Source of the DNA: a virus
DNA: 64,000 bases
Virus record (IMG/VR): IMGVR_UViG_3300023196_003068
Coordinates: 10,409 to 74,408 of that record
Strand: one strand, 5' to 3'
The notes below the pieces were generated by a model. That model had not been told where the DNA came from. It saw only the letters and a list, made by a program, of their open reading frames with translations, and ran no database searches. Below are positions 3,338 to 63,520 of the stretch, in pieces; positions within the stretch are counted from its first letter, which is position 1, and every line of letters starts with the position of its first letter. The translations under genes and the position numbers were made by a program.

Positions 3338-3751
3338 ATGCCAAAAGAAATCAACAACAACGCAATTGGGAACATAATGCTTATTAAAAGTTCGTTCCAA
3401 CAAGAACAAATGGAGAAAGCAGTAGATAATTTCTCAGGAGTTCCAATGTCTACAGACTCACCCTTTGTAGAGATAATTTGGGATCCTGTAAGATACACTC
3501 TTGCTATTATCAGCAAAATTAAAAAGGAATCTTTTCATTTCTTACCTAAGTTAAATGGTAGTGGAATTCCATTACCAAACAACAACAAACAATCAGCTGC
3601 TCAAGTGCCATATCAGCAAGAAAGAGTGCTTATTGAAACATTCCATGAATACTTCATTGAAGATTTGGATGATGTTAAAAAATTCTTAACTGTATATGCC
3701 TACAATCAAGATTTTGATTGGGATGCCTTTGTTGGTAAGAAGAAAGAATAA
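3338..3751 (+). CDS. Hypothetical protein
   Basis: 137-aa ORF between a promoter match and a terminator. Confidence 0.8.
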   Translation: MPKEINNNAIGNIMLIKSSFQQEQMEKAVDNFSGVPMSTDSPFVEIIWDPVRYTLAIISKIKKESFHFLPKLNGSGIPLPNNNKQSAAQVPYQQERVLIETFHEYFIEDLDDVKKFLTVYAYNQDFDWDAFVGKKKE

Positions 3752-18586: not shown

Positions 18587-19693
18587 CTAACAATCTTTTC
18601 TTTTGCGTTTAATTCTACTTAAATCCTTGTCATTAATGTCCTGGCTTAAATCTTTTGATGGATCGTGTGGCCACTCTGTAGCTGTGTCTTGCTTTTCTGC
18701 GGTTGATTTATAGTTGTCTGGATTAGAGATATCATTCTTAGCAAAAGCCTCTTTTTCGAATTTTCTCACACCATCCACTATTAAACGTTGAGCTTCTGAT
18801 ACTAAATTACTCCCCTCAATTGTTTTGAGTAACTCATCAAGCCTCCCTCTGATACCTCTTACATTCTCTATACGGTCTGAGACTGTCTTGTCTTCTTCCT
18901 TTAGTGCTGCGTATTCTTTTTCTTGTTTTGAGAGTTCTCGACTGGTAGACTTTTTGTGTTGGTCTTTTTGGATGCCGCTCATATCTCTAACACGCTCAAT
19001 GTTTTCTATTAAATAGTCTATTGTGTTGTTATGAACTTCATCAATAGGACTGCGCAACTTATTTAACTCCTCTATCAATGTCCCATTACGAATGCTTATC
19101 GAATTAACAATAATATCAAAATCAAGAAGCTTCCTATATAGCTTAACATCTGGTCTGTGGGGTTTTTCTTCTGCTTTTTGAGATTCTCCACTCCTAACTA
19201 TAGCTCTAGAAGGGTGAACACTCTGCTCAATCTCCCATTCATTCTTATAGTAGTCAGCATCAGATTGATAATCTCGTTTTTCTTGATCCAGCAATGCGGT
19301 ATCGCCTTTAAAAAAAGCAATGTCTCTTTTGAAATCATCAAACTCATCATTTACTTCTTCAAGATCCTTATCGCCATACTTAACCCTCCAGGCTTGCACT
19401 AGGATATTCGGAGTAGAAATAGTAACCTCAATTGAATCAACCAATGTATTATTAATGGAAGTCCATCCTTGAGCAAACTTCGGCCCATACATGGCTCCCA
19501 TTTTTTTAGAAACCCTTTCTGCATTCTTATTAGCAATATGCCATAATTTAGATTTATCAAACTTATGACTAACCGGCATCAATATTACACCAGGCTTAAT
19601 TTCACGAAAGGATGTAGACTTCCCCTTAAATGCCTGAATTGCATTATATGTACTTTGTTCTACTCTCTCGTCTAAACTACAATCGTTAGCCAT
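18587..19693 (-). CDS. Putative cargo/linker protein
   Basis: 368 aa between giant cargo genes; only Cys are C5 and the terminal C368. Confidence 0.7.
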   Translation of the reverse strand: MANDCSLDERVEQSTYNAIQAFKGKSTSFREIKPGVILMPVSHKFDKSKLWHIANKNAERVSKKMGAMYGPKFAQGWTSINNTLVDSIEVTISTPNILVQAWRVKYGDKDLEEVNDEFDDFKRDIAFFKGDTALLDQEKRDYQSDADYYKNEWEIEQSVHPSRAIVRSGESQKAEEKPHRPDVKLYRKLLDFDIIVNSISIRNGTLIEELNKLRSPIDEVHNNTIDYLIENIERVRDMSGIQKDQHKKSTSRELSKQEKEYAALKEEDKTVSDRIENVRGIRGRLDELLKTIEGSNLVSEAQRLIVDGVRKFEKEAFAKNDISNPDNYKSTAEKQDTATEWPHDPSKDLSQDINDKDLSRIKRKRKDC

Positions 19694-19696
19694 AAT

Positions 19697-22600
19697 TTAA
19701 CATATTTCATCTGGTAAACTGTCTATATCTTCTTGAGTAAGAGCCGTTCCCTTATCTTTTTGTTGATCTGTTATATCTATTGTTCTCGAAGGTGCCTTTG
19801 GCATTCCTTCAGTTATATCAGATGCTCTCCTAAAAGTAAGAGTTATTGTGTAATCTTTAACCACCCTTCCGTCAGGAAGAGTAATAGGAGGCAAATTATT
19901 TCCTTTTGTCGGTGCCATAGGTGTATCATGAGCCATTTCAAATCTTCCTTTTCCATCCATTCCAAAAGTATAAATAGTTCCCGATTTTGTGGGAATTTCA
20001 GTTTTTCTACCCGTCTCAGCCCAAGAAGCCAGGCCAGTAGGATTGCCATTTTTATCTATATCCTCATAAATATTAATAGCATTCCCTACACCAATGGTAT
20101 ATACAACCACCCCATAGTTTCTTGCAGTTTCACTTTCTGTAGTATCTCTATGTGTAGAAATCTTATCACCAGGTAAATAAATATTACCAATAACAGCATC
20201 ATAATTGGACATATCGATTCCTAAAACTTGCTCCACTTCATCAATTATAGGTTGTAATACAGACAAACCAGGTAATGGATTTCCCTTTTGATCTAAACCA
20301 TGATACGCATATTTGAATCCTGTGGATTTAGTAATACCCTTTCTTTTCATTTCTGCAACCTCAGCATCTCTTGATCTTTTATCATATGAATTAATTTCCA
20401 ACTTAGGATCAGCATCCAATTCAATACGTGTCCATCTTAATCCAAACTGAAACATTAGATTGGCTCTCGCACCTATATTCTCTTTAGTTGCTTGAGCTAG
20501 AATTTGAGGCTGAATAAGCTTAATAAATTCCTTCTCCTTTTCTATGGAAGGGTTTGTCTCTGCAACATTCACCCCATAGGCATCAGATATAACTCTTACT
20601 GGGGTCTTAGGTAGCTTTTTCTTGTATAGATCAAGAATATCCTTCCTATTTCCATCAGTAGCTCCCCACTTCATTTTTTTATTAGATGTAAGAGAGATAA
20701 TATTTTCCTTTGGAGTTACTAAATATTTAGCACCTTTATAAGCAACCTGAATAGCTTTAGAATTTAATGGAGTTAAATTTTTCTCGCTAAAAGATTTTTT
20801 AGCCTTAGCACCTTCTTCTTTTAAATTAAGAACTTGCCATGTTCCATTAGTATTTTTCTTAACAGCAATGTACGTAATTCCTTTGGAGTCTTTAACATAC
20901 CTACCAACTTCTACAGACAGTTTGTCTTCACTAGTTGTAAGCTTACCTTTAAATGTTGCTTTATATACATCCCTAATAGCTTCTTCTGCATTAGCAGACA
21001 TGCCTCTACTACCAATAGCTGCAAAATTATTAGTCAAAATAGGTGTATCAATTGACACAAATTTAGAACCATCCCAAGTATACCATCCTTGTGGTAAATG
21101 TGAATCGGCTTTTTTATTAGGATCATTATACACATATACAGGTTTTCCAGCTTGTATAGCCATTTCTACAGCATACCCAGTACCGCCTTGAACAGACTCA
21201 GATTTGCTAATTTTTCTTTGCTTATCTTCTGGTTTATATGCATCTTCACTCCAAGTATCCCCCTTTTTTCCAATCGGAGCAACAGCAAATACAGCTTCTG
21301 AATTAGCAACTTGTGCCCAATTTCTTATTAATCTTGAATCAGACATAGTTTTATACGCATAACCCCACATTTCTTTAGCGGCACTAGCTACTTTTGTCTT
21401 GCCATCCGTTTCAATTTGTGTATTTGTTATATCTACATTACCATAAGGTGCATTTGTTTTAGAAACTTTACCTAAATAATAATGATTGAATTTAATAGCA
21501 CCAAATTCCTTAGCTATATCATCCCATATTTTATCTGCGCCAAGAGCTCCACCTGAATGAGCTGTAAAATCTTTAGGATTATTTGTACCCTCCGGTCGGT
21601 CTGCTACAACTTTATTATAAGCATTTATTAATGTTTTTAGAAAATGATTCCCTTTATCTGAAGTCCACCATGTACCTTCTCCTTTTTGATAAGCTTGAGC
21701 ATCATCTTTTTCATCGTAAGTATGAATAGATTTTTCCAAGAATTCAAGACCGCCCCGCTCTATTATTTTATCAACTAAGAAAGGATACTGACGTAGCTTA
21801 GCCTCTATAAGATTAGTAATAAGTTCAAGATTTCTCGAAGTTGTACCTCCTTTGCCTTCTTCTCTTAAATCAAAATAAGCTTCTTCTACGTCTAAGTAAG
21901 GCCTTCCTAGTGGATTACCAGCATAGTTAAGACCTTTATCTAGCTGTAGATAAGTTCCTATAAGTTTACCCTTAGATTTTGAAGACTTTCCTCTAGGATT
22001 ATAATGAGTAGGATTAGTAAGAGCTGCTCCCAATGGATCATTAGAACCACTAAATATATTTACACCCTTAACACTAGTTGATTGGGAAGGTGCTACATCA
22101 TTAATAAAATAATCCAATACAGTAGCGTGAGATGGGCCACCAATATTTTTATAATATTCAATTGGTAAACCTCTTAACTTTCCTTTCTTAAAAGCCTCTA
22201 ATAAAGCCGTTCTATACTCTTGCTCCATAGTTGTATGCATTGTGCCTTGAAGCCACCCTATAAATTCTTGAGCTCCTCTTCCTGGTTTATTAGGATCCGC
22301 TGATATCGGATTTCCTATAGCGTTATACTGTTGAAATGATTTTAAGAAACCTAATTTCTTATTAACCCTAAATGCAGTAACAACTTTTTTATTCCTAGTA
22401 TTTTTAAAAATCCTTAAATGACCTGTTGTTTCATCCACTCCTTCTACAATCACAACCTTTCCGCGAATAGTCTTACCCCCAAGCTTATTCCATACTTCCA
22501 TGATTTTAGCAGAAAACTTGTCCTTTCCTACAGAAATACTCTTTTGATTTTTAAGTTTTGCAATTTCGGTATTTCGATAAACAGTCCTAACTTCCATTAA

Positions 22601-25600
22601 GACCTTCTCTAACATTGTAGAATATGGACTAACACCTATTTCTATAGGCCCATCAGTATTTGCAAGTCGATCAAAGAAGTCAGATTTTTTGTCACCATGA
22701 TTCTTGAATTTATCCTTTACCTTTTGCTTCATATCATTAGCAACCTCAATAATAGATTCATTCGTTATAAGATCATCAGCTGACCTACTGTTTATCTCTT
22801 TTGAAAGAGCCTCATTAAACAAATAATCTAAGCCAAGATAATCCAACTTAACAGGAGCCTTATTAGGATCAAATAAATTATTTACTGAAAGATCTTTGTC
22901 ATTTGTCCACTCCATGTACTTACCAATTGGAGCATATCTAGGAATCGCTACCCAGCCTTTTTCTTTAAGAAAGTCAGACGCTAATTGCTCAATTCCAGAA
23001 TCTTTAAGACCTATATTAAAACGAGCCCCGGCTTTCATGGCTTTTTTAATTTTAGGTAAATAGTGTGTCTTAAACACTGCTTCAATTTCTTTTTGATACC
23101 CCTCTTCCTTAAGATCATGGGCTTCTTTAGCTCTAAACGTATTGTTACCAAACACCCAAACAACATCCTCTGAGCTAAATTTAGTTTTACTATGAGCTAA
23201 TCGCTCCTTATAATCCCCTGCTTCAATTATTCCTATATATTTAGAAGTAGTACTTCTTGGTATGCCCGAAAGCTCAACATCTTTCCCAATAGCTACTGTA
23301 GAAGCATTAGCCATTGCTTCATCTCTAGAAGTATCCTTTGCTCTTGCTCCCTCGATAGTCGCTATAGATATATTATCTGGTGTTTGACCAAGAGATAGAT
23401 CAACGAGATATGGAACTGATTTTCTATTGTCTATACCAAATTCAGTAAGTAGCATTTGATCAAGTTCTTCTTGAATAACACCCTCCGGAGCATCTATTTT
23501 TCTATCTAGAATATATATCTCCTCTCCTTTTAGTTCTTCTATAAAATCCAAATCAAGGCTATTACCTTTAAACCATTGATGATCATAAACCTGAATTGAA
23601 TCAGACGGCAACTCATTAAAATTATTTACAATCTGAACATTATTATACGTCAGAGATTTAACAACATGAGTCTCAATTGTAACACCCAAATCATCTTTCA
23701 TGTAATTTATACCCCTACTCATTATCCTTGAAGCATTCTCCTTGCTAAGAAGCCCATCATATATTGCAGTAAATAGGTCTATATACCCTATGGATTCTAA
23801 AGGAGTTCCGCTTGCCTTAGCTTTCTCTGCCGCCTTCAATGCTCGAATTACTCTCTCTGCTTTAATCCCTTCCTCAATAACATTCCAAAGCTTATATTGG
23901 TTGATGATTTTTGTTAACGCATATTTAGCACCAGTATTTAAACCAGTTTGCATTATAGCCATATTCCCAAACTTATTAAAAAAATCAGCAACAGCTGGTA
24001 TTCTATGAGCTTTAAGTGCAATAAGATTTTCACGATAAATTCTAGCCATATCTGCATCCTTAATATCGGAAAGGAATATATTAGTTTTGCGAAGATCTAT
24101 GGCATAATCAAAACGCAAATCTTGTATTAAACTAAAATTTTCACGCAACTCAGGATGCTTTTGCATAAGCCTTCTTAATATTGATGCTCTGCCCATTCTG
24201 AAATCAAACATTGCTACAGGATCATCGGACCGATATAATGCTGCTTTATATAAAAGTGCAACTCTAGTAAATGTCCCACTAGAATAACTATTAAACTGGT
24301 ATAAATGTTTTTGAACCTCCTCATTGCTCATATCTTTAGTTTCCTCCTCTAATTTTGCAAACTCTATTGAGAACCGAACAAATTGATTTCTACCTCCCGG
24401 TGGAAACATTTGGGATAAATCTGAAGATATATAATCCGCACCAAAAAGAATAGTACTAACTCTTTGTTGCGCTTCATCCATCCACTTACTTCCAAAGGTA
24501 ATTTTTTTATCCACCTCATTAATAACCAAAGGATCTGAACTCCCCTGAACTTCTTCTAATGCATACCCATCATAGCTTTCTGAATTAAATAAAGAGTTCT
24601 GATATAAGAATAGTGTGAAATCATTCTTAAACTTATTTCTAGTGACTTGTGGGATAATGCCTGGCGGGGAGTTTATTTCAAATGACTTCTCGATAACAAT
24701 AGGATTGTTACGTAAAGCAAAATATTTACTAAACAACTCTATTATAAATTGATCATTATCAAAGATACCAACAGGAGAAAATTCTATTTCGTCAAACCAT
24801 AGATTAGGAATAGCTGATTGCTTACTTTTAAACTTAGTAGTTCTTGTTATGCGGTTTGTCGCTTCAGAAATACTCCTTATTTTTTGAGTGTCAAACTTTG
24901 TTAAATCTTGAAATGTCTGAAGGTCTAATGCCAAATCTTCAATCTCAAGATAATGAGAAAATATCTTAAACTGTTCAAAAGAAAAAGCTCCTTTACCATC
25001 TACTGCTTTAAGCCCCTCATCCAACAAGTCTTTAATTACACTAAAGTCTAAATTACCATCTAATAATGCACTAACTTTCTTGTATTCAGATGCCTTCCAT
25101 TCTCTTTCATCTTTAAAACCATCTCCCTCTTTAAACCAATCAAACATTGCATACCGAGCCTTGCTTAATATTTTTGACCTCTCCACAATAGGACTCACTC
25201 CAAACTCATCACTAAGATTACTAAAGACACCAGAAAGCTCTGCCTTTATTTTGTTATACTTAACAATCATTGGCATCGAAACAAAGTATGCAATATCCTT
25301 AATACTCATTCCGGCCATAACCATAAGCAAAAGCTGTGGAGTATTCTCTTTATTTCCTTGAATTTTAAATATCCATGGGTTAGTTGCAACATCTACATAC
25401 CCATTAACTAATTGCCCAAGAACTTGTGATATAGGTAACCCGTCCATATTCTTAGCCATAGCGAGTGATATTGCACCATTCGCCTTATTGTGCTTAAACT
25501 TAATGGTATAATCAGTAAACTCAAATATAACCTTATTGGCAATATCTATTTGAGCCTTTGTAGATTTATCATTTTCTAATACCTCAATAGCCTTTGCGTG

Positions 25601-28600
25601 TTCTCGCTTTTCTTTTTCAGTAGCAGTATTAAGTGTTGCTCCAAATCTTGTAAATAAAGCATAATATGTCGTAGCAATAGCGGCTATACCCAGAGCATCT
25701 ATTCCTATAGAATTATCTTGTTGTTTTTGTAGATTCATTCTATAGTCTAAGACAGTAGACCTTGCTATATCTGTTCCTGCTTCTTTATCTAATCGGTTGA
25801 ATTCATTAAAGCTTTTTTCTATAAGGGCATATGCCTGGTCAGCTAAACTTCTTAAATCAGTTTCTTCTTGAGCTTTAGTTTTACGCTTTTTCTTTTTTGT
25901 CTTACCCTCTACCTTCTCTTCAGTCTTTCCTTCTGTAAATAGATCGGTTTTATTTGGACGAATAAGAGCTTCAAAATTATTACTCATAGTAATTCTATCC
26001 TTGAAAGATTTTAAAAGCTCATTTTCTAAGCCTCCCATTCCTTTATTAAATAGCTTTCTTAATACTCTTCCCTTTTTAACTTTAAGATCTTCAGCTTTAT
26101 CATATAAACCATTAATCTCCGCTCTATAATTATCTTTAATCTTTTCAATTGTTGCGGTTTCCTCTGAAGTAAAAACTATTTCAGCTAGAGCTATATCAAG
26201 TCTTTCATCAAATACGGCAATACCTTCATCAATAGCCTGTTGTATCTCAGAAATACGCGATGATGTATATGCATGCACATTTCTTTGTTGCTTACGAGTA
26301 TAATTTTTAAAATTACCTACACTATTATAAACATCACTTGCATATTGCAAAGTCTCCACCATTTGCATCTCAAGCTTCTCCATTTGAATAGCATACTGCG
26401 GGAATTTAGCTCTTATAATCCCCTCAATATCTTTAATACTTTCATTAACCTTCTTTAGCTCATTTATTCTTCTTGTTTTAGCATCCTTTATCTGATCATA
26501 AACATCATTTATTTTAGTAGAGTATCCATCAATACTTTTCCCTAACTTCTCAAAACTTTCAGAAACCTTTTTGTGTACCTGCATTTCAACACTTCCATTT
26601 ATTGAAACTATATTTGGAAACATTGTAAACAGCTTATCAAAATCAAAATCTGAACCTGTTTTTGCGACTATCTCTGAAGGGACAACAACGATAGGACCAA
26701 CGGACTCTGGTAAGAACTGCTTAACTACCATTGCCTCTAGTGTGTTTTCTTCTGCTGTAGGTATACGTGGCCCTGCAATAGTAAGCATATCTTCATACTT
26801 AGCGAACCATTCCTTGTCACGCAAAGCACTATTTAATCGAGCTAAAGAAGCCTGACTATCTATAATGTCCTTGCCTGACTTAGCATCCTTTACTCTTACA
26901 GTAATATCTTGACCATCGGGATGCTTTAATTTTAATAGATGCTTGAATTTACCTTGAAGGCCAATCTTAACCTCCATCTTAGATATCTTATAATCAGCCC
27001 AAGCTCCCTCTCTTTCGTCTTTTATAAAGTTCCCATCTGCATCTTTTAAGTAGTAACTCTTAAGATCTCCGGCACTTAATATATCTCCAAATTTTTCTAT
27101 GTCTTCTGCTGTAGGCCCTTCAAAAGATTCCTGCATTGCTCCAGTAACCTGAACCAAAGGCTCACCATTAACCTCTATTCCCCGAAGCTTCTTGTCAACC
27201 ATTACTGTAAGAATCTTCTCTATTTTTTCAGCAACCAAAGAAATAGATAAATCATCTATCATTTCTCCACTACCATCCTGTTTTGATATAAACTGAACCT
27301 CTTCTGGAAGTAAATCTTCTTTCTCTAATTGTGATTGAATATAGATTAATAGCTTTTTTGTATCCCCTTTATAAGTTTTTTTCTCTTTACCTTCAACCCA
27401 GGTAATTTCTTCTTCCATTCCTATATCAAAAAGTAAATCTTCTTTAAGTTTTACTTCCATCCGATGAAGAATATCCTCATAGTTGGTTAACCACTTGTAA
27501 TTTGGAGATTTATTCTCTTGTTCTTTTTCAGATAAACTATCCCAATTTTCCTCTATAACTTTCCATTGCTTTGCAGTACCATTAAAATCAGTCGGCACAC
27601 CACCCTCCATAATGCCCAATAGAACTAATTTTCTCCATTGTGTTGGCAGTGTAGTGTAGCCCTTATATCCACTCTGAGTTCTAATCTGATCCCTAAGCCA
27701 CCTAACATGAATTTTATTTATAGTAAAGGGAGCATCTGTTATTTCTCTTTCTTTGTTGTAAACATCATCAGCCTTAGCATCTTCTATCGCATTTTTATTT
27801 ATACTACCATCTGAATTTTTTCCTTTTATAGTTACAATAGTGGAAAGTTTAGAGCCTGTCTCCATGGTAACATAATGAACACCATCTTCCATCATTTTTT
27901 CATGAAGCTTTTCTAATTTAGTCCCTGCATAAGCAGTAGGAATGATTGGTGCTAATGAGTACTTATGAAAGCCCCTCATCTGTAGACCATAATTATTGTT
28001 ATCTTCATTTGAGATGTTCCCATTGTATTGAAACTTCCTAACAGGAAACGTAACCTTTAAGTCTGCCGGCTCAAGAGTCTCTCCCTTAAGGATTTTTTGA
28101 TAAACAGACTCCTGGCTAGCCTCACCTGTAGTCGTCCAATTATTAGAAGCCATCGATAGGATCCGATATGTATCAAATGTTATCCATCCTTGAGCATCAG
28201 CCTCCTCTATTCCTTCATAATTTTCTTTTTTAGTACCACCCAGTTTTTCGTATTGGTCTTTAAAATAAGAATCATGCTCAGACTCTTTAATTATTCCTGT
28301 ATTTAAATGACCATCAAACGTAGTCTCCTTAAATGTTTTGCCAATTGCCTTCATGTGCTTTTTGGCAAACCCATTCATTTCAAATACATTATTTTTCTCA
28401 GTGTTTATATAGTTATACCAGCTTTGATCAAACCGAAACATGTCTCCTGTAGAGATAACCCCCGCATTACGTTTGTGGAAATTTCCAGCTGCAACTTCAT
28501 AAATGGCTAAATCTCCAACAAACATTGTAACATAGTTAACATTGTTGATGTAATTGTTTATGATCATTGCCCTAAACATCCTCTCCTTAGTAGTGGCTAC

Positions 28601-31600
28601 TTCTTCTTTATCATTTTTTCGATACTCTTCAATCTTATTTTCTGCAATTTTAACGTCTCCCTTCTCCTTAAGTAGCTCCTCAGATCGTTTTTCAAAATAT
28701 CTTTTTAAGTCTTTTTCAATTTCCTTTTTTTCCGAAAAAGAAAGCGTAGAATCTAATGTAAAAGATGTATCAATATTTCTTTCCAAAAGTCTCTTTTGTA
28801 CATCATCGCTTAACAATAAATCAAACATGTGAAGATCCTCTCCTCTTTCTAAAAATCCCTTATCAAACTTAACGGTCTCACCCTTTTCAATACGAGCCTT
28901 GATAGCCTTAATGCGTGCTATACGAACTAACTCCCCCTCCAGGTGTCCTTGAAATTGATTATATAGTATTAATGAATTAATCGGACTCTTAAGGTCGTCA
29001 TACTCTTCAGAAAAAATATGATTTATCTCATTCATACTTACAACCAATCCTTTTCGTGGATTAATTTCTCCTTTAACTTTAACCGGAGCAAATACAGTAG
29101 CAGATGTAGCCTTTGCTTCAGATCGTGGTATCTCCTGACGAGCCGCCAATGTTAAATACATATCAGATATAAACTTGGTATTCTCATCTGATGAAATAGC
29201 CTCTATTCCTTTTTCTTCTCTTCCATACCTTACCTTAGAGCCTGATAAAGTTTCATGTGTAATATTAATAGCTGGATTACGCTCCCCTCTTTTATCACCT
29301 TCAATATCCAATTGAAACATTTGAATAAACCAAGTATTACCTGCTATAGCCGGATTAGTTTCAACATTAAATCCCTCCATACCAGGAATGCCTATTAATT
29401 CATCATAACTCTTTGCGTTATTTAAGGTAGCAGCCTGGATTGTCATCGATGAATGCTTCGTCTTTTCAGACATGCGTTCATTATTTGCATTGAATTCAGT
29501 AAAATTTACATACTCATCAGAAAGATGTTGTGCTAACTGTACGATTTGTTCATAATACCCACTAACATCTGGCTGTGTTCGCTTCTCATTATTGGGGTCT
29601 ATATAATCAAATGATTTAAAAAGACTCTCAAGGTCGTATATACGAGAAACTTTCTCCGAAGCAAACTCACCTCGTAACTTAATGGATTCTATAATATAGT
29701 GAAGAACCCCCTTACCAATTCCCAATTCCTCATACCCTTTTTCAAGAGCATCTCTTACCTCAATGGTTTCAGGTAACTCAATTCCTATAATCTTTAATAA
29801 AGGAAAAGGATCTGCCAACCATTGTTTGCGATGAAAAGGTTCGTAATCATAATTTACATCTTTTTCTTTGTGAAACAACTCACCAGATGCATTTATAGGA
29901 ACATGAACCATAGTTTCAAAGCTCTCTATTACACCCATTAAATCATAAGTTTCTAGGTATTGACGATTATCTGCTTCATCTGTTGCGTAAATAGACCATT
30001 CGTTTATTTCAGATTGATTTCTAAAGTTATCCCGCCATTGTCCTTTAATGATTGCAGCATTCCCTTTTGGCTTACCTACAATTGACTCCCATCGAACACT
30101 CTCAGTCGCTTCATCTTCTATCTTTTCTAATGAATGATAAGTAAGACGATTTGTTGCTTTAGCTATAGATTGCCACAATGCTCCCCACTGAACTTGCTCA
30201 ACTGTTTTAATATCCGCAGATTGCAAATCACCCATTACCTTTAGCACCTGTCTTATTTCATGGTCAAACTTTGCTGCTTCTTTAAGTGCGTTATAAATAT
30301 CATCTGCATCTACGCGATTTCCTACTATTTTAACAAGCTTCCCTAATATTGTCTTAAAAGGGAGTGGCTGCGGAAGACCCAGGCGATTTGGTTTATATTT
30401 ATCACTTCTTCCTTGTCTTTTATATGAAGGAATCCCACTCAATAAATGTCGGGTAAGATCATTTGCCGACTCAGTAATTGAAAATTCAGCTCCCGTCCGA
30501 TCAAAAACATGTCTTAAGCGAGCATCTGTTTCATCATCCGTAAGCTCCTCAATATTTTGAACCTCCTCATTGAAAGTGTAAAAATCAGCATAGTTGTTTA
30601 GGAATAGTCCAATTATTGTATTATTGTCATCTTTAAAAGTATTAATCGAAGCTTCGGTATCTCCAAAAGAATCTAAAATTTTATCCAATAATGCCACCTT
30701 CTCAGCTTCCACTATAGATAAAACATTCATCCCGTTCATGTATATTTGTCGCTTTGTTTTAAATACATTCTCCATGTACTTAAAAGCTGCTGCTAAAATA
30801 GAAGGCTCTTGCACAACTCTTAAATATCCAAGACCATTCCTAATACTAGTCTTTCCCAGGTGACCATCAAGTAACTTATTTGCTTCTTTATAGTTTTTAT
30901 TAAACTCAGGATCGCTTACATCTAAAGATGATAACTGGGTAAGCAATTCAATCGCTTTTAGATTTGACTCAGGAGTAGCTCCTGTATTTAATGCTGTTAC
31001 TACAAATCTATGCATCAATGCTTTCATTGATGTCATGGTTATATTAACATCATCAAAACTTAAATCTACATCCTTCCCAAGCTCAAAGCTAGAGTAATAT
31101 GTTTCCGGATCATTGGGAATCTCAAATTTAGATATATCAATATTTCCTTCGTATAAATCTTTAAAGATGGCATTAACTTTTGGGCCAAACTTATTAAGAG
31201 TAGTAACTTCGTTTACTGTTGTTTTACCAAAGAATTTTTTTAATTGAGCCAACAACTTCGCAAAGAACTTAGCAACTTTAGATTTTGGCTTTTTATTAAA
31301 GGCACTACGATTAGTAGCATATTTACGAAATTCCTCTGCTAAATACTCTTCTATTTCTAAATCTGTAGCATCTTTAAAGTTTAATGTCTTAGCCTTTCCT
31401 AAAACCGTTACTGTAAATTGACCACCAAGACCCCTAACCTCTTTATAAATTTCAGCAACTTCCTCTTTAGTTAATATGGAATCAGTAAGACCATGCCATG
31501 ATTCATGGTATATATCTGTTTTTTGCGAACCAGAATATAGTGTAATTAATCCCGCTATATAATCAGCCACATATTTTGGTCCCTTTTCATGAACCTTATC

Positions 31601-33490
31601 CTTAATTTGAAGGCGTATAACTTTTCTTAAAGGATTATCTTCTGATTTCCACCATCTATCTGCAGCATCATCTTGTTCTTTAGTAGATTTTCCTCGTTTG
31701 TTATGCTCCGATATTGTTCTAAAAAGTAAATCTTTTGCTTCTTCGTCGGTTTTTTCTTCTATCTCCGTAGATGCCTCTATAGAGGAAAATGATAAATAAG
31801 AACCATGGCCTCTAATCTCTCCTTTATCATTGGGAACTTGTGTAATATAACCATTATCACTAATAAACGCTGCTCTATCTTTTTCGACTATTGTTATTTC
31901 ATTATCCTTAATAGAACCTACAACCCTAACCTTATCTGTTAATGTTACCCCACGATATAAACCAAAATTAATTTCTGGTTTACGAGCCATCATTATTCTA
32001 TCCCCATCTCTAAATATTTGATTATGAAAGGTTACATTCTCTAATCCATTTACAAGCTCATAATCTTTAGGAAGATCTTGATGATAATCAAATGGTACAA
32101 GCTTTTGCGTCCACTCAATAAAGGTTTCTTTAAAATTCTCAAAATTAACCGGAGAACCATTCCTGAACACGATTGCCCTAGAATCACCCAGGACTACTGA
32201 TGTAATTCTTATGCCATCATCTTTAATTGTAAAAGGTATCTCGTGTTTTATATTGCTACTCGCTCTAAACTGAATAAAATTAGTAATAAGCCTTTTCCTT
32301 TCAATTAATGGCAAAGGATTACCATCTATTTTTAAATCAGGATTTACTATTAGCTCTGCAATATAATCAAGTTCCTTTTCGGATAACTGATCTAAAGGTT
32401 TATTGTGTATTCTAGCAGGTGCCGATGATCTAGGAACTTTCAGTACTGGAAAATTGGATTTACCTATAGATGCAATAGTCAGCACAGTCTCACTAATATT
32501 TCTAATACTCCCTATAGGAGTTTGTGTATTGTGATCCCTTGCAACAAACCCGATGCTACTAGCATTCATGTTTAAATGAAAGAATACATTTTTCTCAGCC
32601 AAAAGCTTTCTTGAAGTATTCAACATTGCGATATGATTATCTATCTCTGCATTAACAAGTTTTGATGCATCCTCCGGGCTTAATGGTTCTTCTTTTCTAT
32701 TCACAAGTGAATCAATTTTAGATTCAATAGTTACCTTATACTCAGCCTTGCTTACTCTTATAGGAAAAGCAGGAATCTTACCATTAACATCAGGGTTTCC
32801 TTGTTCATCGAACTTAACTATATTGCCATCCTTATCAACTAACACCATCACCGGGCGAGACAAATCATCCTTTGGATACTTATAACTAATATCAGAGTTA
32901 AGATTAGCTTGTTCAATGGTCATCATTTTAAACCTATACCCCTTGCTATTGTTAGAATTAATTACAGAAGTCTGAACAGCAATTTCAAATACCTTTTCCT
33001 GGTCTGGTACATTCTTGGAATATTGAAAATCTGCATCCCACTCAGACTCCTGGCTAATAGTCTTAGCAAAAGAACGAGATATTGCGTTATACGAAAGAGG
33101 AGCCATTGGTGCTACTGTAATGCCGCCAACTCCTAGTGAGCTAACTATACCAGTAATTATGTTCTGAAAGTCCTCTTTAGATGGTTGTTGAGAAGCCTTA
33201 TATATCTCAGTTCTTTTTTTGTTTATCTCTCCAACAAGAGTCTTCTCATTAATTGCCGGGTTCTTTAGGATATACTGCGTAAGTATTTCAGGCAGAATTG
33301 TGAAGTGCTGAATAAGAGTTTCTTGATTATCAAGCTTAGTCTCAGATAGATTAAAATCCTTAAGGGCTTTCTGATAAAGTTCTCTTTGAATTTCATCATA
33401 CGTCTTCTCGTTGGAAATTATATTCTCCAAATTATTTGTGAAGTAAGTCCCAAAAAGATTAATTGACCTAGAAGTTATACAAACATTCAT
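19697..33490 (-). CDS. Giant virion-packaged DNA-dependent RNA polymerase (crAss-like two-barrel RNAP) with zincin and C-terminal accessory domains
   Basis: 4597 aa; RIPT...LP...P.EIVAKTGSDFDFDKL (DxDxD at 26636-26650), KRNAG, DAQGW, YVDVA motifs; HESWH...EEYLAEEF zincin at ~31330-31510; SLOG/NADAR/AlkB-like tail. Confidence 0.9.
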   Translation of the reverse strand: MNVCITSRSINLFGTYFTNNLENIISNEKTYDEIQRELYQKALKDFNLSETKLDNQETLIQHFTILPEILTQYILKNPAINEKTLVGEINKKRTEIYKASQQPSKEDFQNIITGIVSSLGVGGITVAPMAPLSYNAISRSFAKTISQESEWDADFQYSKNVPDQEKVFEIAVQTSVINSNNSKGYRFKMMTIEQANLNSDISYKYPKDDLSRPVMVLVDKDGNIVKFDEQGNPDVNGKIPAFPIRVSKAEYKVTIESKIDSLVNRKEEPLSPEDASKLVNAEIDNHIAMLNTSRKLLAEKNVFFHLNMNASSIGFVARDHNTQTPIGSIRNISETVLTIASIGKSNFPVLKVPRSSAPARIHNKPLDQLSEKELDYIAELIVNPDLKIDGNPLPLIERKRLITNFIQFRASSNIKHEIPFTIKDDGIRITSVVLGDSRAIVFRNGSPVNFENFKETFIEWTQKLVPFDYHQDLPKDYELVNGLENVTFHNQIFRDGDRIMMARKPEINFGLYRGVTLTDKVRVVGSIKDNEITIVEKDRAAFISDNGYITQVPNDKGEIRGHGSYLSFSSIEASTEIEEKTDEEAKDLLFRTISEHNKRGKSTKEQDDAADRWWKSEDNPLRKVIRLQIKDKVHEKGPKYVADYIAGLITLYSGSQKTDIYHESWHGLTDSILTKEEVAEIYKEVRGLGGQFTVTVLGKAKTLNFKDATDLEIEEYLAEEFRKYATNRSAFNKKPKSKVAKFFAKLLAQLKKFFGKTTVNEVTTLNKFGPKVNAIFKDLYEGNIDISKFEIPNDPETYYSSFELGKDVDLSFDDVNITMTSMKALMHRFVVTALNTGATPESNLKAIELLTQLSSLDVSDPEFNKNYKEANKLLDGHLGKTSIRNGLGYLRVVQEPSILAAAFKYMENVFKTKRQIYMNGMNVLSIVEAEKVALLDKILDSFGDTEASINTFKDDNNTIIGLFLNNYADFYTFNEEVQNIEELTDDETDARLRHVFDRTGAEFSITESANDLTRHLLSGIPSYKRQGRSDKYKPNRLGLPQPLPFKTILGKLVKIVGNRVDADDIYNALKEAAKFDHEIRQVLKVMGDLQSADIKTVEQVQWGALWQSIAKATNRLTYHSLEKIEDEATESVRWESIVGKPKGNAAIIKGQWRDNFRNQSEINEWSIYATDEADNRQYLETYDLMGVIESFETMVHVPINASGELFHKEKDVNYDYEPFHRKQWLADPFPLLKIIGIELPETIEVRDALEKGYEELGIGKGVLHYIIESIKLRGEFASEKVSRIYDLESLFKSFDYIDPNNEKRTQPDVSGYYEQIVQLAQHLSDEYVNFTEFNANNERMSEKTKHSSMTIQAATLNNAKSYDELIGIPGMEGFNVETNPAIAGNTWFIQMFQLDIEGDKRGERNPAINITHETLSGSKVRYGREEKGIEAISSDENTKFISDMYLTLAARQEIPRSEAKATSATVFAPVKVKGEINPRKGLVVSMNEINHIFSEEYDDLKSPINSLILYNQFQGHLEGELVRIARIKAIKARIEKGETVKFDKGFLERGEDLHMFDLLLSDDVQKRLLERNIDTSFTLDSTLSFSEKKEIEKDLKRYFEKRSEELLKEKGDVKIAENKIEEYRKNDKEEVATTKERMFRAMIINNYINNVNYVTMFVGDLAIYEVAAGNFHKRNAGVISTGDMFRFDQSWYNYINTEKNNVFEMNGFAKKHMKAIGKTFKETTFDGHLNTGIIKESEHDSYFKDQYEKLGGTKKENYEGIEEADAQGWITFDTYRILSMASNNWTTTGEASQESVYQKILKGETLEPADLKVTFPVRKFQYNGNISNEDNNNYGLQMRGFHKYSLAPIIPTAYAGTKLEKLHEKMMEDGVHYVTMETGSKLSTIVTIKGKNSDGSINKNAIEDAKADDVYNKEREITDAPFTINKIHVRWLRDQIRTQSGYKGYTTLPTQWRKLVLLGIMEGGVPTDFNGTAKQWKVIEENWDSLSEKEQENKSPNYKWLTNYEDILHRMEVKLKEDLLFDIGMEEEITWVEGKEKKTYKGDTKKLLIYIQSQLEKEDLLPEEVQFISKQDGSGEMIDDLSISLVAEKIEKILTVMVDKKLRGIEVNGEPLVQVTGAMQESFEGPTAEDIEKFGDILSAGDLKSYYLKDADGNFIKDEREGAWADYKISKMEVKIGLQGKFKHLLKLKHPDGQDITVRVKDAKSGKDIIDSQASLARLNSALRDKEWFAKYEDMLTIAGPRIPTAEENTLEAMVVKQFLPESVGPIVVVPSEIVAKTGSDFDFDKLFTMFPNIVSINGSVEMQVHKKVSESFEKLGKSIDGYSTKINDVYDQIKDAKTRRINELKKVNESIKDIEGIIRAKFPQYAIQMEKLEMQMVETLQYASDVYNSVGNFKNYTRKQQRNVHAYTSSRISEIQQAIDEGIAVFDERLDIALAEIVFTSEETATIEKIKDNYRAEINGLYDKAEDLKVKKGRVLRKLFNKGMGGLENELLKSFKDRITMSNNFEALIRPNKTDLFTEGKTEEKVEGKTKKKKRKTKAQEETDLRSLADQAYALIEKSFNEFNRLDKEAGTDIARSTVLDYRMNLQKQQDNSIGIDALGIAAIATTYYALFTRFGATLNTATEKEKREHAKAIEVLENDKSTKAQIDIANKVIFEFTDYTIKFKHNKANGAISLAMAKNMDGLPISQVLGQLVNGYVDVATNPWIFKIQGNKENTPQLLLMVMAGMSIKDIAYFVSMPMIVKYNKIKAELSGVFSNLSDEFGVSPIVERSKILSKARYAMFDWFKEGDGFKDEREWKASEYKKVSALLDGNLDFSVIKDLLDEGLKAVDGKGAFSFEQFKIFSHYLEIEDLALDLQTFQDLTKFDTQKIRSISEATNRITRTTKFKSKQSAIPNLWFDEIEFSPVGIFDNDQFIIELFSKYFALRNNPIVIEKSFEINSPPGIIPQVTRNKFKNDFTLFLYQNSLFNSESYDGYALEEVQGSSDPLVINEVDKKITFGSKWMDEAQQRVSTILFGADYISSDLSQMFPPGGRNQFVRFSIEFAKLEEETKDMSNEEVQKHLYQFNSYSSGTFTRVALLYKAALYRSDDPVAMFDFRMGRASILRRLMQKHPELRENFSLIQDLRFDYAIDLRKTNIFLSDIKDADMARIYRENLIALKAHRIPAVADFFNKFGNMAIMQTGLNTGAKYALTKIINQYKLWNVIEEGIKAERVIRALKAAEKAKASGTPLESIGYIDLFTAIYDGLLSKENASRIMSRGINYMKDDLGVTIETHVVKSLTYNNVQIVNNFNELPSDSIQVYDHQWFKGNSLDLDFIEELKGEEIYILDRKIDAPEGVIQEELDQMLLTEFGIDNRKSVPYLVDLSLGQTPDNISIATIEGARAKDTSRDEAMANASTVAIGKDVELSGIPRSTTSKYIGIIEAGDYKERLAHSKTKFSSEDVVWVFGNNTFRAKEAHDLKEEGYQKEIEAVFKTHYLPKIKKAMKAGARFNIGLKDSGIEQLASDFLKEKGWVAIPRYAPIGKYMEWTNDKDLSVNNLFDPNKAPVKLDYLGLDYLFNEALSKEINSRSADDLITNESIIEVANDMKQKVKDKFKNHGDKKSDFFDRLANTDGPIEIGVSPYSTMLEKVLMEVRTVYRNTEIAKLKNQKSISVGKDKFSAKIMEVWNKLGGKTIRGKVVIVEGVDETTGHLRIFKNTRNKKVVTAFRVNKKLGFLKSFQQYNAIGNPISADPNKPGRGAQEFIGWLQGTMHTTMEQEYRTALLEAFKKGKLRGLPIEYYKNIGGPSHATVLDYFINDVAPSQSTSVKGVNIFSGSNDPLGAALTNPTHYNPRGKSSKSKGKLIGTYLQLDKGLNYAGNPLGRPYLDVEEAYFDLREEGKGGTTSRNLELITNLIEAKLRQYPFLVDKIIERGGLEFLEKSIHTYDEKDDAQAYQKGEGTWWTSDKGNHFLKTLINAYNKVVADRPEGTNNPKDFTAHSGGALGADKIWDDIAKEFGAIKFNHYYLGKVSKTNAPYGNVDITNTQIETDGKTKVASAAKEMWGYAYKTMSDSRLIRNWAQVANSEAVFAVAPIGKKGDTWSEDAYKPEDKQRKISKSESVQGGTGYAVEMAIQAGKPVYVYNDPNKKADSHLPQGWYTWDGSKFVSIDTPILTNNFAAIGSRGMSANAEEAIRDVYKATFKGKLTTSEDKLSVEVGRYVKDSKGITYIAVKKNTNGTWQVLNLKEEGAKAKKSFSEKNLTPLNSKAIQVAYKGAKYLVTPKENIISLTSNKKMKWGATDGNRKDILDLYKKKLPKTPVRVISDAYGVNVAETNPSIEKEKEFIKLIQPQILAQATKENIGARANLMFQFGLRWTRIELDADPKLEINSYDKRSRDAEVAEMKRKGITKSTGFKYAYHGLDQKGNPLPGLSVLQPIIDEVEQVLGIDMSNYDAVIGNIYLPGDKISTHRDTTESETARNYGVVVYTIGVGNAINIYEDIDKNGNPTGLASWAETGRKTEIPTKSGTIYTFGMDGKGRFEMAHDTPMAPTKGNNLPPITLPDGRVVKDYTITLTFRRASDITEGMPKAPSRTIDITDQQKDKGTALTQEDIDSLPDEIC

Positions 33491-59695: not shown

Positions 59696-60352
59696 TTACG
59701 AATCAAGTTGCTGTACAAAAAACTGCGCCTGCTCTAATACCATACCGGCACCTGCATTTTTTGTTTTAAACTTTAAACTAACTGTTTCTCCGTCGGCTAA
59801 TGTTAACTTTTTAAATATTGATATATTCTCCGGAATCAATCCCGTTGTAAATTGAAACTCCACTGGTCTATTATTGGGCGTAGTTATCACTGTTTCAGTA
59901 GTGGTTTGATTTACCGGCAACCCCGTATTATCCATCAATAGCCCTATAAGAGCAAATGGTCCTTCGTGTTGCCATTCTATAGTATCAATACTATTGGTAG
60001 TTCTTATAATAGCACCGTCAACCCACAGATTTACTTCATTCTGCAAGAGTGTTGTAGATTGAGCATCCCATGTAGCTTGGGCAAATACTACAAGATCGGC
60101 TCCTGTATTATTTGTATAACTTAAAGTTTGATAACCAACTGAAGGAAACATATATACATCATATGGTCCGGGAAGTAATCCTAAATCAACTGACTCTATA
60201 TTTTCAGCATAACTATTTATCTTATTCACAACGCCACTTCCTTCAGGCCCTTCTGGACCAGGGGGGCCTTGTACTCCAGGAACTCCCTGAAGTCCTCTCT
60301 CTCCTTTTTGGGAAGAAGAACAATCGCACCTACAATTACATTTACAACTCAT
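59696..60352 (-). CDS. Short collagen-like fibre protein with Cys-rich N-terminus
   Basis: MSCKCNCRCDC...GERGLQG, about 7 Gly-X-Y triplets, beta-rich C-terminal head. Confidence 0.8.
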   Translation of the reverse strand: MSCKCNCRCDCSSSQKGERGLQGVPGVQGPPGPEGPEGSGVVNKINSYAENIESVDLGLLPGPYDVYMFPSVGYQTLSYTNNTGADLVVFAQATWDAQSTTLLQNEVNLWVDGAIIRTTNSIDTIEWQHEGPFALIGLLMDNTGLPVNQTTTETVITTPNNRPVEFQFTTGLIPENISIFKKLTLADGETVSLKFKTKNAGAGMVLEQAQFFVQQLDS

Positions 60353-60368
60353 ATCTTTTTCTTAATAA

Positions 60369-61253
60369 TTAAATAGCATCAAAAGCAGCTTGAATATCTA
60401 CAATTGATGTTGTTAGTGGAAGATGGTATTGGAAATTAAAATAAACAGAGCATCCTCCAAAATCATATCCATCACTCATATTTACATCAAATTCAATTGC
60501 TGTTGCAGAGGCAATCGTTTCCCTATTATCTGTAGCCACTGTAAATCCACTTCCATAAGTAAAATGATCAGGAATAAAGTCACCGCTACTAAATATTGAA
60601 CATTCCTCTAACAAGTGGGATGGGATACCTAAAGCTGGATCTCCAAGTCCTTGTCTTTCTTCTGCAGTACCAAATCCAAATTTACCATCTGTTGTTAAAT
60701 AGGAGTATGGAGATAGTGCTTTTAGAGTATATCTTTTTTCAGTATAGTCTGTTGTTAAAGCTACAGTCCTATACAGATGTCCTCCGGTCTGTTTATTAGC
60801 ATAAGTAAAAATCTCAGGATGTAATGTAGGAGGAAGAATTTGAGTATGTGATTCTATTCTTCCTGCAGGTATTTTTGTATATCCCCCATCGGAACCTCTA
60901 TATAAATCAGCATACCAAGAGTTTGGATAAGAATCTTCATTTGCATTTAAATTTAATCCATCCGGTGTACTAGATAATGGTAATTTATAAATACCATTAA
61001 TAGTTACAACTCTATCTACAATTCTAAATTGAGGAATACTTGCTCCTATTACTATTGGAGCTATACCATATCCATTAACAAGGGTATATATAGGGAGATT
61101 CTTCCAACCGCTATCGTATTGAACACTATCTGAACCATCGTTTCCTGGTAGACCTTGGATGCCCTGTGGTCCTTCAGGGCCTTGAATACCCCTTAATCCT
61201 CTCTCCCCCTTTTGAGGTACACAACATCTACTATCTCCACAATTACAACTCAT
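60369..61253 (-). CDS. Short collagen-like fibre protein with Cys-rich N-terminus
   Basis: MSCNCGDSRCC...GERGLRG, about 9 triplets, then YDSGWKNL...QFRIVDRVVTING tail-fibre-like domain. Confidence 0.8.
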   Translation of the reverse strand: MSCNCGDSRCCVPQKGERGLRGIQGPEGPQGIQGLPGNDGSDSVQYDSGWKNLPIYTLVNGYGIAPIVIGASIPQFRIVDRVVTINGIYKLPLSSTPDGLNLNANEDSYPNSWYADLYRGSDGGYTKIPAGRIESHTQILPPTLHPEIFTYANKQTGGHLYRTVALTTDYTEKRYTLKALSPYSYLTTDGKFGFGTAEERQGLGDPALGIPSHLLEECSIFSSGDFIPDHFTYGSGFTVATDNRETIASATAIEFDVNMSDGYDFGGCSVYFNFQYHLPLTTSIVDIQAAFDAI

Positions 61254-61264
61254 AATTCTTTTTT

Positions 61265-62008
61265 TTATGTTAGCGTTGGAAGTAATCCTCCTGCTAAATT
61301 TGCTTTAATAACTAACCACTCCTCGCCTCCTATATAAAGAAAGGTGAAGCAATCCTTATAATTTGTAGGGGCAAGCTGCAATAAGGGGCTTCCCGGATTA
61401 GATCCATTTGCACCAATAACAGTGCTGAAACCAACATTTGATTGAGACCCATTCATTTGAATAACCTGATTCTGCATGACTTCTACATGCCATTCGGATG
61501 TTCCTATGGAGCCATATATATTTATAATATCGCCTACAACAGGTGTAATGGCAGTCCAAGCGCCCGAAAGCCTATACCATCTTAAGCCATTGTTTCTTAC
61601 AATACGTGTCTGATTAACATTTATATTAGAAGTGCCTATAATTGGAGGCACTGATGCAAAGGGGAATTCATCCAAAAAAGGATTTTGAGCATCTACAGCA
61701 TCGCTCCCTCTAGCCCCATCAGTACCGTTAGTGCCATCTAATCCGGGAAGTCCTTGATCTCCTTGCGGCCCTTCGGGGCCATCTGGTCCAGTAGGGCCCG
61801 TTATAGGAATATTTGCATCTGGCCCAGGATCTCCTTGAATCCCTATTATTCCATCAGGCCCAGGACTGCCTTGCCCTCCTTGATTTCCTTGATTTCCTTG
61901 TTCTCCAATTTCACCAGGAATACCATCAATTCCAGCAGGACCTGCTAATCCAGAGAAACCTTTTTCTCCGTCAACACAATCACATGGTATGGGATTACAA
62001 TCATTCAT
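61265..62008 (-). CDS. Collagen-like fibre protein
   Basis: [17 protein letters not shown], about 30 triplets with one interruption, C-terminal GDIINI...YKDCFTFLYIGGEEW domain. Confidence 0.82.
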   Translation of the reverse strand: MNDCNPIPCDCVDGEKGFSGLAGPAGIDGIPGEIGEQGNQGNQGGQGSPGPDGIIGIQGDPGPDANIPITGPTGPDGPEGPQGDQGLPGLDGTNGTDGARGSDAVDAQNPFLDEFPFASVPPIIGTSNINVNQTRIVRNNGLRWYRLSGAWTAITPVVGDIINIYGSIGTSEWHVEVMQNQVIQMNGSQSNVGFSTVIGANGSNPGSPLLQLAPTNYKDCFTFLYIGGEEWLVIKANLAGGLLPTLT

Positions 62009-62685
62009 TATGAAAAATAAGGTATACTATTATTAGCAAATATGACATCCGTCATAATCCATTTTCCTGTTCCATCTGCAATCAAATGTATTACATCAGA
62101 ATAATTACTTGCCAATAAAACAACTTCTCCACCAGGACTTGTTTCCCAATCATATGCCGTTTGATTTGTTAACTGTATAGTATCAGTTCCTAATGCTACT
62201 AATTTCCATCCTCCTGTACCCTGAATAGTTCCTGCAATAGAAATAACATCTCCGAGTAATACCCCTAAAGGAAGTTCTATTGTTACAAAATCTGTATTCT
62301 TTAGGATTAGCCCTGAGTTTCCTACAGGCGTAAGTGTTGTAGGAACTGCTGAAGTATCTATACTCCAAGTAATTCGCCCTTGACCGTTTGCTCCAGGAGC
62401 TCCATTGGTTCCGTTAGTTCCATTTGGACCTTGTATTCCTTGTATCCCTTGTGGACCAACCGCACCCGTTGGTCCTGCGGGGCCTGTAACATTAATACCG
62501 TTAACTCCCGGAGGGCCTTGTAAACCTTGATCTCCCTGTATGCCTTGTAATCCAGGGATGCCTTGTAATCCAGGGATACCCGGAGGCCCTTGATTACCTT
62601 GAGCACCCTGAGAGCCTTGTAACCCTTGGTCACCCCTTGGCCCTCTTTCGCCATCCTTACAACCACATTCATTACAATGTCCCAT
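62008..62685 (-). CDS. Collagen-like fibre protein
   Basis: [18 protein letters not shown], about 30 triplets, C-terminal TIELP...GDVISI...GGW...[12 protein letters not shown] domain similar to the 61265 gene. Confidence 0.82.
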
Positions 62686-62686
62686 C

Positions 62687-63520
62687 CTAGTTTAGTTTAT
62701 TCAAATACATTACTGCCTTTTTTAATACTACTTGATCTGCGCCCAATACAAGATTATCAGCAAAAATCTCAAAAGACATTGGCGTGGTCAAATCATAAGT
62801 AGTTGTAAAAGTTGCAATGGTTGTAATAGAGAAAACCGGGCCAACTAATGTTTTAGTTACATCTTCTATTGTCCATAATTGACTCGCTGAATTAATACGA
62901 GCTATTTTGATCTTAATAAAACGAATATCATTATTAGCATTTTGATAGCTATATGAATATCTATTAGCTGCATTCATATCGAATATGATATCTACTGTAT
63001 CACTAGCAAAGTATTCTGTATGAATAAATAGCTCAAGCTCATCCCCGTTGTTAGATAAAGTATTTCCTACAATATCCTGACGAAAAAGCAAAGTTTCATC
63101 ACCAATAGCATCAGAATTTCCAATTCCTGTTGTATCGTTATATGCTCCTAAGATATATCTACCAATGCCCGCAGCTCCAGTTAAACCAGTTGGGCCTTGT
63201 ATTCCCTGTATTCCTTGAGCTCCTGGGCTTCCATCAGCTCCAGCTGCACCATCTGACCCCGGACTTCCAACAGGCCCAGGAATCCCCTGAGTACCATCCA
63301 CCCCAGGAACCCCCGCATGACCCGTAATACCTTGAATACCCTGATCTCCTTTATCGCCTTTATCTCCTTTCAACCCAACAGCCCCAGCTAAACCCTGCAA
63401 TCCTTGAGGCCCCTTAGCCCCCTGTGCTCCTACAGATCCAGAAGTACCAGTATCTCCCGTTGTTCCAGGCAACCCTCTAGGTCCTCTTTCTCCATCTTTG
63501 CATCCACAATCACAACTCAT
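62687..63520 (-). CDS. Collagen-like fibre protein
   Basis: [16 protein letters not shown], about 36 uninterrupted triplets, beta-sandwich-like head. Confidence 0.82.

Follow-up and report, generated by a model that had tools for sequence, protein, structure and literature searches.

We analysed a 64,000-nucleotide window of viral DNA, positions 10,409 to 74,408 of the IMG/VR record IMGVR_UViG_3300023196_003068 (a 74-kb linear virus with an estimated completeness of 63%), and focused on one giant open reading frame (ORF) on its minus strand, above all on the last ~1,260 residues of the product. The gene is one of several very large ones that form a block on the minus strand; small ORFs with weak PHROG matches to tail-fibre or virion proteins lie upstream of it. 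An earlier reading of the letters alone (the original prediction) had taken its product for a virion RNA polymerase (RNAP) of the crAss-like kind, extended at its C-terminus by six nucleotide-repair or counter-defence-like units. The coordinates given then for these units were right to within about 30-60 nt. In window coordinates, residue i of the ORF corresponds to nucleotide 33490-3(i-1), and the features of the ORF are as follows.

19697..33490, minus strand: giant ORF of 4,597 aa, encoding a virion RNA polymerase of the crAss-like kind that is extended at its N-terminus and carries a putative effector tail at its C-terminus
31493..31507, minus strand: HExxH (H-E-S-W-H, residues 662-666), a motif of the zincin metallopeptidase type, also present in 89 relatives
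26612..28561, minus strand: residues 1644-2293, collinear by BLASTP with gp66 of Cellulophaga phage phi14:2 and ending at the catalytic GSDFDFD
26636-26656, minus strand: catalytic motif GSDFDFD, residues 2279-2285
22496..23488, minus strand: module A+B, residues 3335-3665, combining a Rossmann-like alpha/beta domain with a helical subdomain
22091..22357, minus strand: DUF4326 domain (unit C), residues 3712-3800, from profile and hhalign; GNP at 3726-3728 and His3788
21581..22078, minus strand: NADAR-fold domain of a divergent phage type (unit D), residues 3805-3970, from fold and profile; Glu3869, Arg3876 and His3923
20942..21574, minus strand: SLOG-like unit E, residues 3973-4183, PHROG 768 'DprA-like'; motifs HSGGALGAD, RNWAQV and GGTGYAVEMA...KPVYVY
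20615..20917, minus strand: module F, residues 4192-4292, about 100 aa long and recurrent among relatives
19781..20605, minus strand: AlkB-like 2-oxoglutarate (2OG)-Fe(II) dioxygenase (unit G), residues 4296-4570; His4447, Asp4449, His4521 and Arg4554-Arg4555
19700..19762, minus strand: C-terminal peptide ending in Cys4597, a terminal cysteine conserved in the giant relatives

By homology, the giant ORF encodes a crAss-type RNA polymerase, as had been proposed. It contains a single DxDxD motif, the GSDFDFD at residue 2281. BLASTP against gp66 (g066) of Cellulophaga phage phi14:2 aligned residues 1644-2293 collinearly with gp66 865-1373 (9e-18), pairing TGSDFDFDK of the giant ORF with TGSDFDIDK of gp66 and stopping on the catalytic loop. 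Querying by tblastn with residues 1400-3380 retrieved, around the DxDxD motif, annotated RNAP catalytic subunits of Carjivirus communis (3e-8 to its gp44) and of many other crassviruses, and likewise phi14:2 g066. Whole-protein and per-segment Pfam scans of the giant ORF yielded a sub-threshold AlkB match and nothing else, phmmer searches of the PDB with the giant ORF and two large neighbours returned nothing useful, and PHROG scans of ten neighbouring ORFs found only weak tail or virion matches, in three small ORFs. The phi14:2 polymerase, characterised in both structure and function, has been shown to be virion-packaged and translocated (bioRxiv 10.1101/2020.03.07.982082; PMC10172136). Homologous polymerases and their neighbours are ejected ahead of or with the DNA, and RNAP-associated proteins form capsid cargo that is partly unfolded at ejection (PMC10172136). 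The window protein resembles phi14:2 gp66 (PDB 6VR4) and the PhicrAss001 cargo proteins gp47, gp49 and gp50 in its homologous catalytic core, with the DFDxD motif, and in the position of its gene amid giant-protein genes downstream of virion and tail genes. It differs from gp66 in length: gp66 stops at 2,180 residues and lacks a tail of this kind, whereas the window protein reaches 4,597 residues, with an N-terminal extension, module A+B and five further modules.

Searching with residues 3381-4597 gave 179 giant proteins; the counts that follow rest on the best 120 of these (121 including the query). The polymerase core is common to 95 of the 120, at 23-35% identity, and coverage collapses past residue ~3250. 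Iterative searches inside the relative set delimited the tail modules as independent families, distributed as follows.

Module G (AlkB-like): 104/121 proteins
Module E (SLOG-like): 51/121 proteins
Module D (NADAR-like): 27/121 proteins
Module C (DUF4326): 21/121 proteins
Module F: 17/121 proteins
Module A: 9/121 proteins
Module B: 1/121 proteins (the query only)

These modules stand in every order among the 120 relatives, mostly after the core and sometimes before it. Precomputed Pfam lists of the relatives contain canonical NADAR, ART-PolyVal, DUF7831, RecD-like helicases, kinases and RNase H, without placement along the chain. The original prediction had called for a comparison of tail architecture among relatives, and the outcome agrees with it: the core is shared and the tails are permuted. 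Close relatives also occur in independent samples, since short contigs 95-99% identical to most of the tail (window 19600-24600) are present in three hydrothermal-vent and one sediment metagenome runs; no such contig bridges any domain junction.

The NADAR-like unit of the original prediction is borne out by both fold and profile. An AlphaFold2 model of unit D, built on an alignment of 35 sequences from viral contigs, reached a predicted local distance difference test (pLDDT) score of 89. When it was compared by VIA with 48,161 PDB chains, the first three ranks were all NADAR structures: 2b3w (Z 8.7, root-mean-square deviation (rmsd) 3.1, 123 aligned), 8bau (Z 8.6, rmsd 2.6, 119 aligned) and 8bat (Z 5.9), with the next chain at 3.7. 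Foldseek also ranked YbiA (2b3w) first, weakly. By hhalign, the unit D family matched the Pfam-positive NADAR of the relatives with P 2.7e-5 and 74% probability, the sole signal among 21 tail-family pairs (P >= 0.075 for the other 20); one such relative, P0006, scores 41.7 bits on Pfam NADAR (cut-off 35.1). Unit D and canonical NADAR never occur in one protein (27 versus 22 of 121, P 0.002), and the DUF4326 unit can precede either. Mapping of the active site by sequence alignment and from PMC11543638 shows no variation in the family at Glu3869 and His3923, and places Arg3876 at the +7 position. This spacing of Glu, basic +7 residue and His fits the published description of phage NADARs, which have His at the catalytic position (PMC11543638). 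Unit D shares the NADAR fold and, on this mapping, the conserved Glu and the basic +7 residue with AdfN and the DarG1-type NADAR hydrolases (PMC11825919, PMC11543638). It differs from them in having His instead of the catalytic Asp/Glu, in being fused rather than free and in not matching the Pfam model.

Immediately before unit D, the DUF4326-like unit was also recognized correctly. A six-sequence profile of unit C matched a 102-aa protein, P0134, in a 5.8-billion-protein database (6.8e-9). P0134 is a clear DUF4326 member (PF14216 at 83.5 bits), and hhalign aligned unit C with it at 98.6% over 84 columns. Unit C keeps the GNP motif and the His of DUF4326, without the cysteines of the family. 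In one viral contig (L047, 925-1668), the DUF4326 match is interrupted: a D (NADAR-like) match lies between its two parts and overlaps both, an arrangement that may represent a domain-in-domain insertion. A single-sequence scan of viral contigs with the C+D segment found nothing.

Unit G, the predicted AlkB-like dioxygenase, likewise stands. Pfam PF13532 scored 22.1 bits on the window protein, below its cut-off of 31.2, and 32.5 and 32.3 bits, above the cut-off, on the relatives P0004 and P0006. A 107-sequence profile of unit G aligned by hhalign with E. coli AlkB at 94.5% (P 7.9e-8, 139 columns), placing His4447, Asp4449 and His4521 on AlkB H131, D133 and H187, so that the HxD...H triad is intact; it is also invariant. 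The second Arg of the RxSxTxR motif is kept as Arg4554, followed by an invariant Arg4555. When the profiles of units D, E, F and G were run against PDB sequences, neither NADAR nor DprA nor AlkB was retrieved, the one exception being a weak 2OG oxygenase match (5xeg, 0.021). Pfam scans of D, E and F family members gave nothing.

For unit E, the SLOG assignment is tentative. The unit belongs to PHROG 768 'DprA-like' (4.8e-10) and carries SLOG-type motifs, but no link to DprA, YpsA or a PDB chain emerged. A 40-sequence profile of unit E had no match in the PDB, and a search of the E. coli K-12 chromosome with the unit E profile found nothing. E. coli Smf gave P 0.33 against unit E by hhalign, which is no link, and no match to PHROG 768. 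The Pfam YpsA and DprA models were silent on unit E, the only signal being one of 8 bits inside the copy carried by Klebsiella phage Pylas. About 350 homologues of unit E stand alone as proteins of ~200 aa without any Pfam domain. Two further settings are of note as observations in their own right. In Pylas, the unit E domain is embedded in an N4-like (T7-type) virion RNA polymerase (vRNAP), within its N-terminal third (L073 9001-9555), and in the gut crassvirus cr113_1 it forms the C-terminus of a 4,328-aa protein whose sole annotation is 'DprA-like' (L074 6001-6558). Because unit E occurs both in the N4-like vRNAP of Pylas and in crAss-type giants, one module is found on two unrelated virion polymerase types. 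The small beta-rich unit predicted next to it proved to be a real recurrent module, F, present in 17/121 giants, but it joined no family, whether by profile against the PDB or by Pfam scan of its members.

The remaining unit, originally described as a degenerate SLOG-like domain (~22940-23350), finds no support as such. The ~330-residue module A+B to which it belongs occurs only in giant relatives, always in the same place behind the core, and in one subclade. Its AlphaFold2 model (pLDDT 80) comprises a five-stranded alpha/beta domain and a helical subdomain, and its best VIA matches are generic Rossmann methyltransferases (Z 5.1), with SLOG chains absent from the top 50. Foldseek with this model returned nothing at E<=0.001, a BFVD search with unit A found no significant match, and hhalign of residues 3381-3560 against unit E gave P 0.29-0.45. 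For these residues we therefore prefer a generic Rossmann-like domain to the SLOG label. We also considered a decayed second NADAR in the helical part (22496-22870, residues ~3540-3665) and set it aside as too weakly supported: VIA gave Z 4.1 to 2b3w (YbiA), and hhalign P 0.02 over 20 columns. The terminal helix of A+B ends in LMEVR, which hhalign aligns with the last NADAR helix, either a remnant or chance.

In its architecture, the tail resembles the effector portion of a polyvalent protein. The window protein is large, carries several unrelated effector domains and belongs to a set of shuffled architectures, as polyvalent proteins do, with virion association following by homology to gp66. 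N4-like virion RNAPs count among the polyvalent proteins, and a zincin peptidase, ART, lysozyme or RNase is joined to them (PMC5512222). Further points of likeness to the polyvalent proteins of phages and conjugative elements (Iyer et al. 2017, PMC5512222) are a giant, apparently virion-delivered protein with several independent enzymes beside a virion RNA polymerase, a conserved HExxH and ART-PolyVal-type matches in relatives. The differences lie in the polymerase, which is T7-like in those N4-like vRNAPs and of the two-barrel crAss type here; in the effector set, as NADAR, DUF4326, SLOG-like and AlkB units are none of them named there; and in the Pfam MPTase-PolyVal model, which has no match in the window protein. 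The combination of DUF4326, SLOG and NADAR is itself known from phages, where it is predicted to act early in infection against host immunity based on ADP-ribose, processing ADP-ribose derivatives and so destroying signals or toxins of this origin (Iyer et al. 2022, PMC9503650). The same three families adjoin here, as DUF4326-NADAR-SLOG-like. Whereas those DUF4326/SLOG/Macro/NADAR systems and neighbourhoods are mostly stand-alone or small fusions, here the trio is embedded in a virion polymerase, its DUF4326 is cysteine-less and an AlkB unit is added. The 'nucleotide repair' part of the original label suits the AlkB unit alone.

AlkB domains are also carried by the replicase polyproteins of plant RNA viruses, which likewise join an AlkB-type dioxygenase to a polymerase-containing viral polyprotein. 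The present case differs in that the virus is a DNA phage, the enzyme would be virion-delivered and the lineage is unrelated. In the literature searched, we found no paper that reports these domains from a polymerase of the crAss type; the concept of a polyvalent effector tail on a virion polymerase is already known.

On balance, we consider it probable, with moderate confidence, that residues 3712-4570 (~900 C-terminal residues) are a polyvalent-protein-type effector tail injected with the virion polymerase of a marine crAss-like phage. Independent enzyme modules would be strung behind the polymerase core and behind the lineage-specific A+B module. Because the polymerase would be synthesized late, loaded into the capsid and delivered to the next host along with the DNA, its tail would supply ready-made enzymes before any phage gene is expressed. 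NADAR takes DarT1 ADP-ribose off DNA (PMC11543638, PMC11825919), and phage NADARs defeat DarTG1 (PMC11825919). The His-type NADAR may likewise hydrolyse ADP-ribose from guanine of DarT1-modified single-stranded DNA, or cleave ADP-ribose-derived signals, and the SLOG-like unit and the cysteine-less DUF4326 may bind or further process ADP-ribose derivatives. The AlkB unit would remove lesions of the 1-methyladenine/3-methylcytosine type from single-stranded phage DNA or the first transcripts. Our results demonstrate the homology of the polymerase, the identities of the DUF4326, NADAR and AlkB domains, the intactness of key residues in NADAR and AlkB, and the shuffling of modules among relatives; packaging and injection of the tail, and the activities and substrates of its units, are inferred.

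Several observations weigh against this interpretation. Virion presence and host translocation are known only for phi14:2 and PhicrAss001 and are attributed to the window protein by homology. The HExxH motif could allow proteolytic processing, by which the tail would be removed or released. Pfam DUF4326 (PF14216) matched neither the window segment nor the genome, and the CxC...CH cysteines of the family are replaced (YYK...SH) in all 6 aligned members of unit C, so this copy may be non-catalytic. Nor did Pfam NADAR (PF08719) match the window segment or 10 unit D family members at E<=10. Where most relatives of unit D have Lys, the window protein has Arg3876, and the K95R variant of the E. coli C7 NADAR was active in vitro and did not rescue cells (PMC11543638). 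The first Arg of the RxSxTxR motif is Thr in unit G. Finally, the placement of unit E among SLOG domains is provisional.

The loss of the DUF4326 cysteines also speaks for a regulatory role. The tail might be a sensor region whose SLOG-like, cysteine-less DUF4326 and possibly NADAR units bind host signals derived from NAD+ or ADP-ribose and switch the polymerase, catalysis being partly lost. Some SLOG clades have been described as non-catalytic sensors, phage SLOG fusions have been proposed as regulators of nucleic-acid enzymes (PMC9503650), and phi14:2 gp66 is packaged in a self-inhibited state whose activation is unexplained. However, the catalytic residues of the NADAR and AlkB units are kept and family-invariant, and modules found in any order on either side of the core fit independent effectors better than an allosteric device, leaving a sensor rather unlikely. 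The enzymes might otherwise act in cis, with NADAR and AlkB clearing ADP-ribose and methyl adducts from the single-stranded bubble template and the nascent RNA as a transcription-coupled clean-up. Single-stranded nucleic acids are the substrates of DarT and AlkB (PMC11543638), and virion polymerases of two unrelated types carry such fusions, as the SLOG-like unit in an N4-like vRNAP illustrates. Yet the same modules also precede the core in the chain and lie at a distance from it, and the roughly 350 stand-alone proteins indicate that coupling to an active site is not required; we regard action in cis as unlikely, slightly more so than a sensor.

The cysteines of the protein bear on a third alternative, in which the HExxH peptidase or a prohead protease cuts the tail off before or during packaging, so that it either works solely in the cell where it is made, for instance to clean DNA for packaging, or is discarded. 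The motif itself speaks for this: YHE[AS][WF]H, located in the N-terminal extension, is strictly conserved in the 89 relatives. Moreover, proteolytic maturation is common in phage heads and has been raised as a possibility for gp66, and metallopeptidase processing has been proposed for polyvalent proteins. No Pfam peptidase model matches the HExxH region. The 4,597-aa protein has cysteines at residues 4 and 4597 only. Its giant relatives (143 examined) have a median of 2 cysteines and almost none at internal positions; a Cys lies within the last 8 residues in 134/143 and within the first 12 in 119/143, and the terminal Cys is kept whatever the content of the tail. A cysteine conserved beyond the tail implies that selection reaches the end of the polypeptide, which argues against routine tail removal. 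As N4 vRNAP is also packaged unprocessed, we judge cleavage improbable, the least likely of these alternatives. An injected, modular effector tail remains our preferred explanation. The kit of injected enzymes envisaged by the original prediction gains from the homology to gp66, the polyvalent-like shuffling and the conserved terminal Cys, and loses from the unsupported identity of one of its six units and from a DUF4326 without cysteines; overall, that prediction is partly confirmed in what it observed and partly supported in how it was interpreted.

The depletion of cysteines extends to the neighbouring genes. Four consecutive minus-strand genes (window 12685-39999) have Cys nearly only at the ends of their products, a pattern that permits a head-to-tail chain, and genes on the plus strand have 1% Cys. 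The neighbours of the polymerase in this group are as follows.

2,169-aa neighbour: one Cys, 2 residues before the C-terminus
368-aa neighbour: Cys at both ends only
1,966-aa neighbour: one Cys, at residue 4

Elsewhere in the window, at 59696-63520, an uninterrupted series of five small ORFs on the minus strand (218-294 aa) shows Cys-rich N-termini, with Cys at positions 3, 5 and 7 (9, 11), as in M-S-C-x-C-x-C; two of the five have weak tail-fibre matches.

Selection against internal cysteines would account for the cysteine-less DUF4326. Taking this further, we offer tentatively, and as a doubtful rather than a favoured possibility, a broader picture. The end of the polymerase would be a hypervariable effector cassette in which >10 enzyme families are swapped as a record of host defences. 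The injected giants (2,169, 4,597, 368 and 1,966 aa) would be Cys-linked head to tail and enter as one ordered chain, tethering the effectors beside the first transcribing polymerase, and selection against cysteine would have stripped those of DUF4326.

Crassviruses are among the most abundant phages known, yet functions have been assigned to only a minor part, by mass, of the giant proteins that they inject. Part of the remaining mass would be explained if the polymerase tail were a modular kit for counter-defence that enters with the DNA. Its shuffled modules would then offer a comparative read-out of the host defences relevant to Bacteroidota-infecting phages, namely ADP-ribosylation, ADP-ribose signalling and base alkylation, and would provide biochemists with small, naturally occurring variants: a His-type NADAR, a cysteine-less DUF4326 and an AlkB without the first 2OG-binding Arg. 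The polyvalent-protein idea would also extend from the T7-like polymerases of N4 to an unrelated two-barrel polymerase, which would be a case of convergence.

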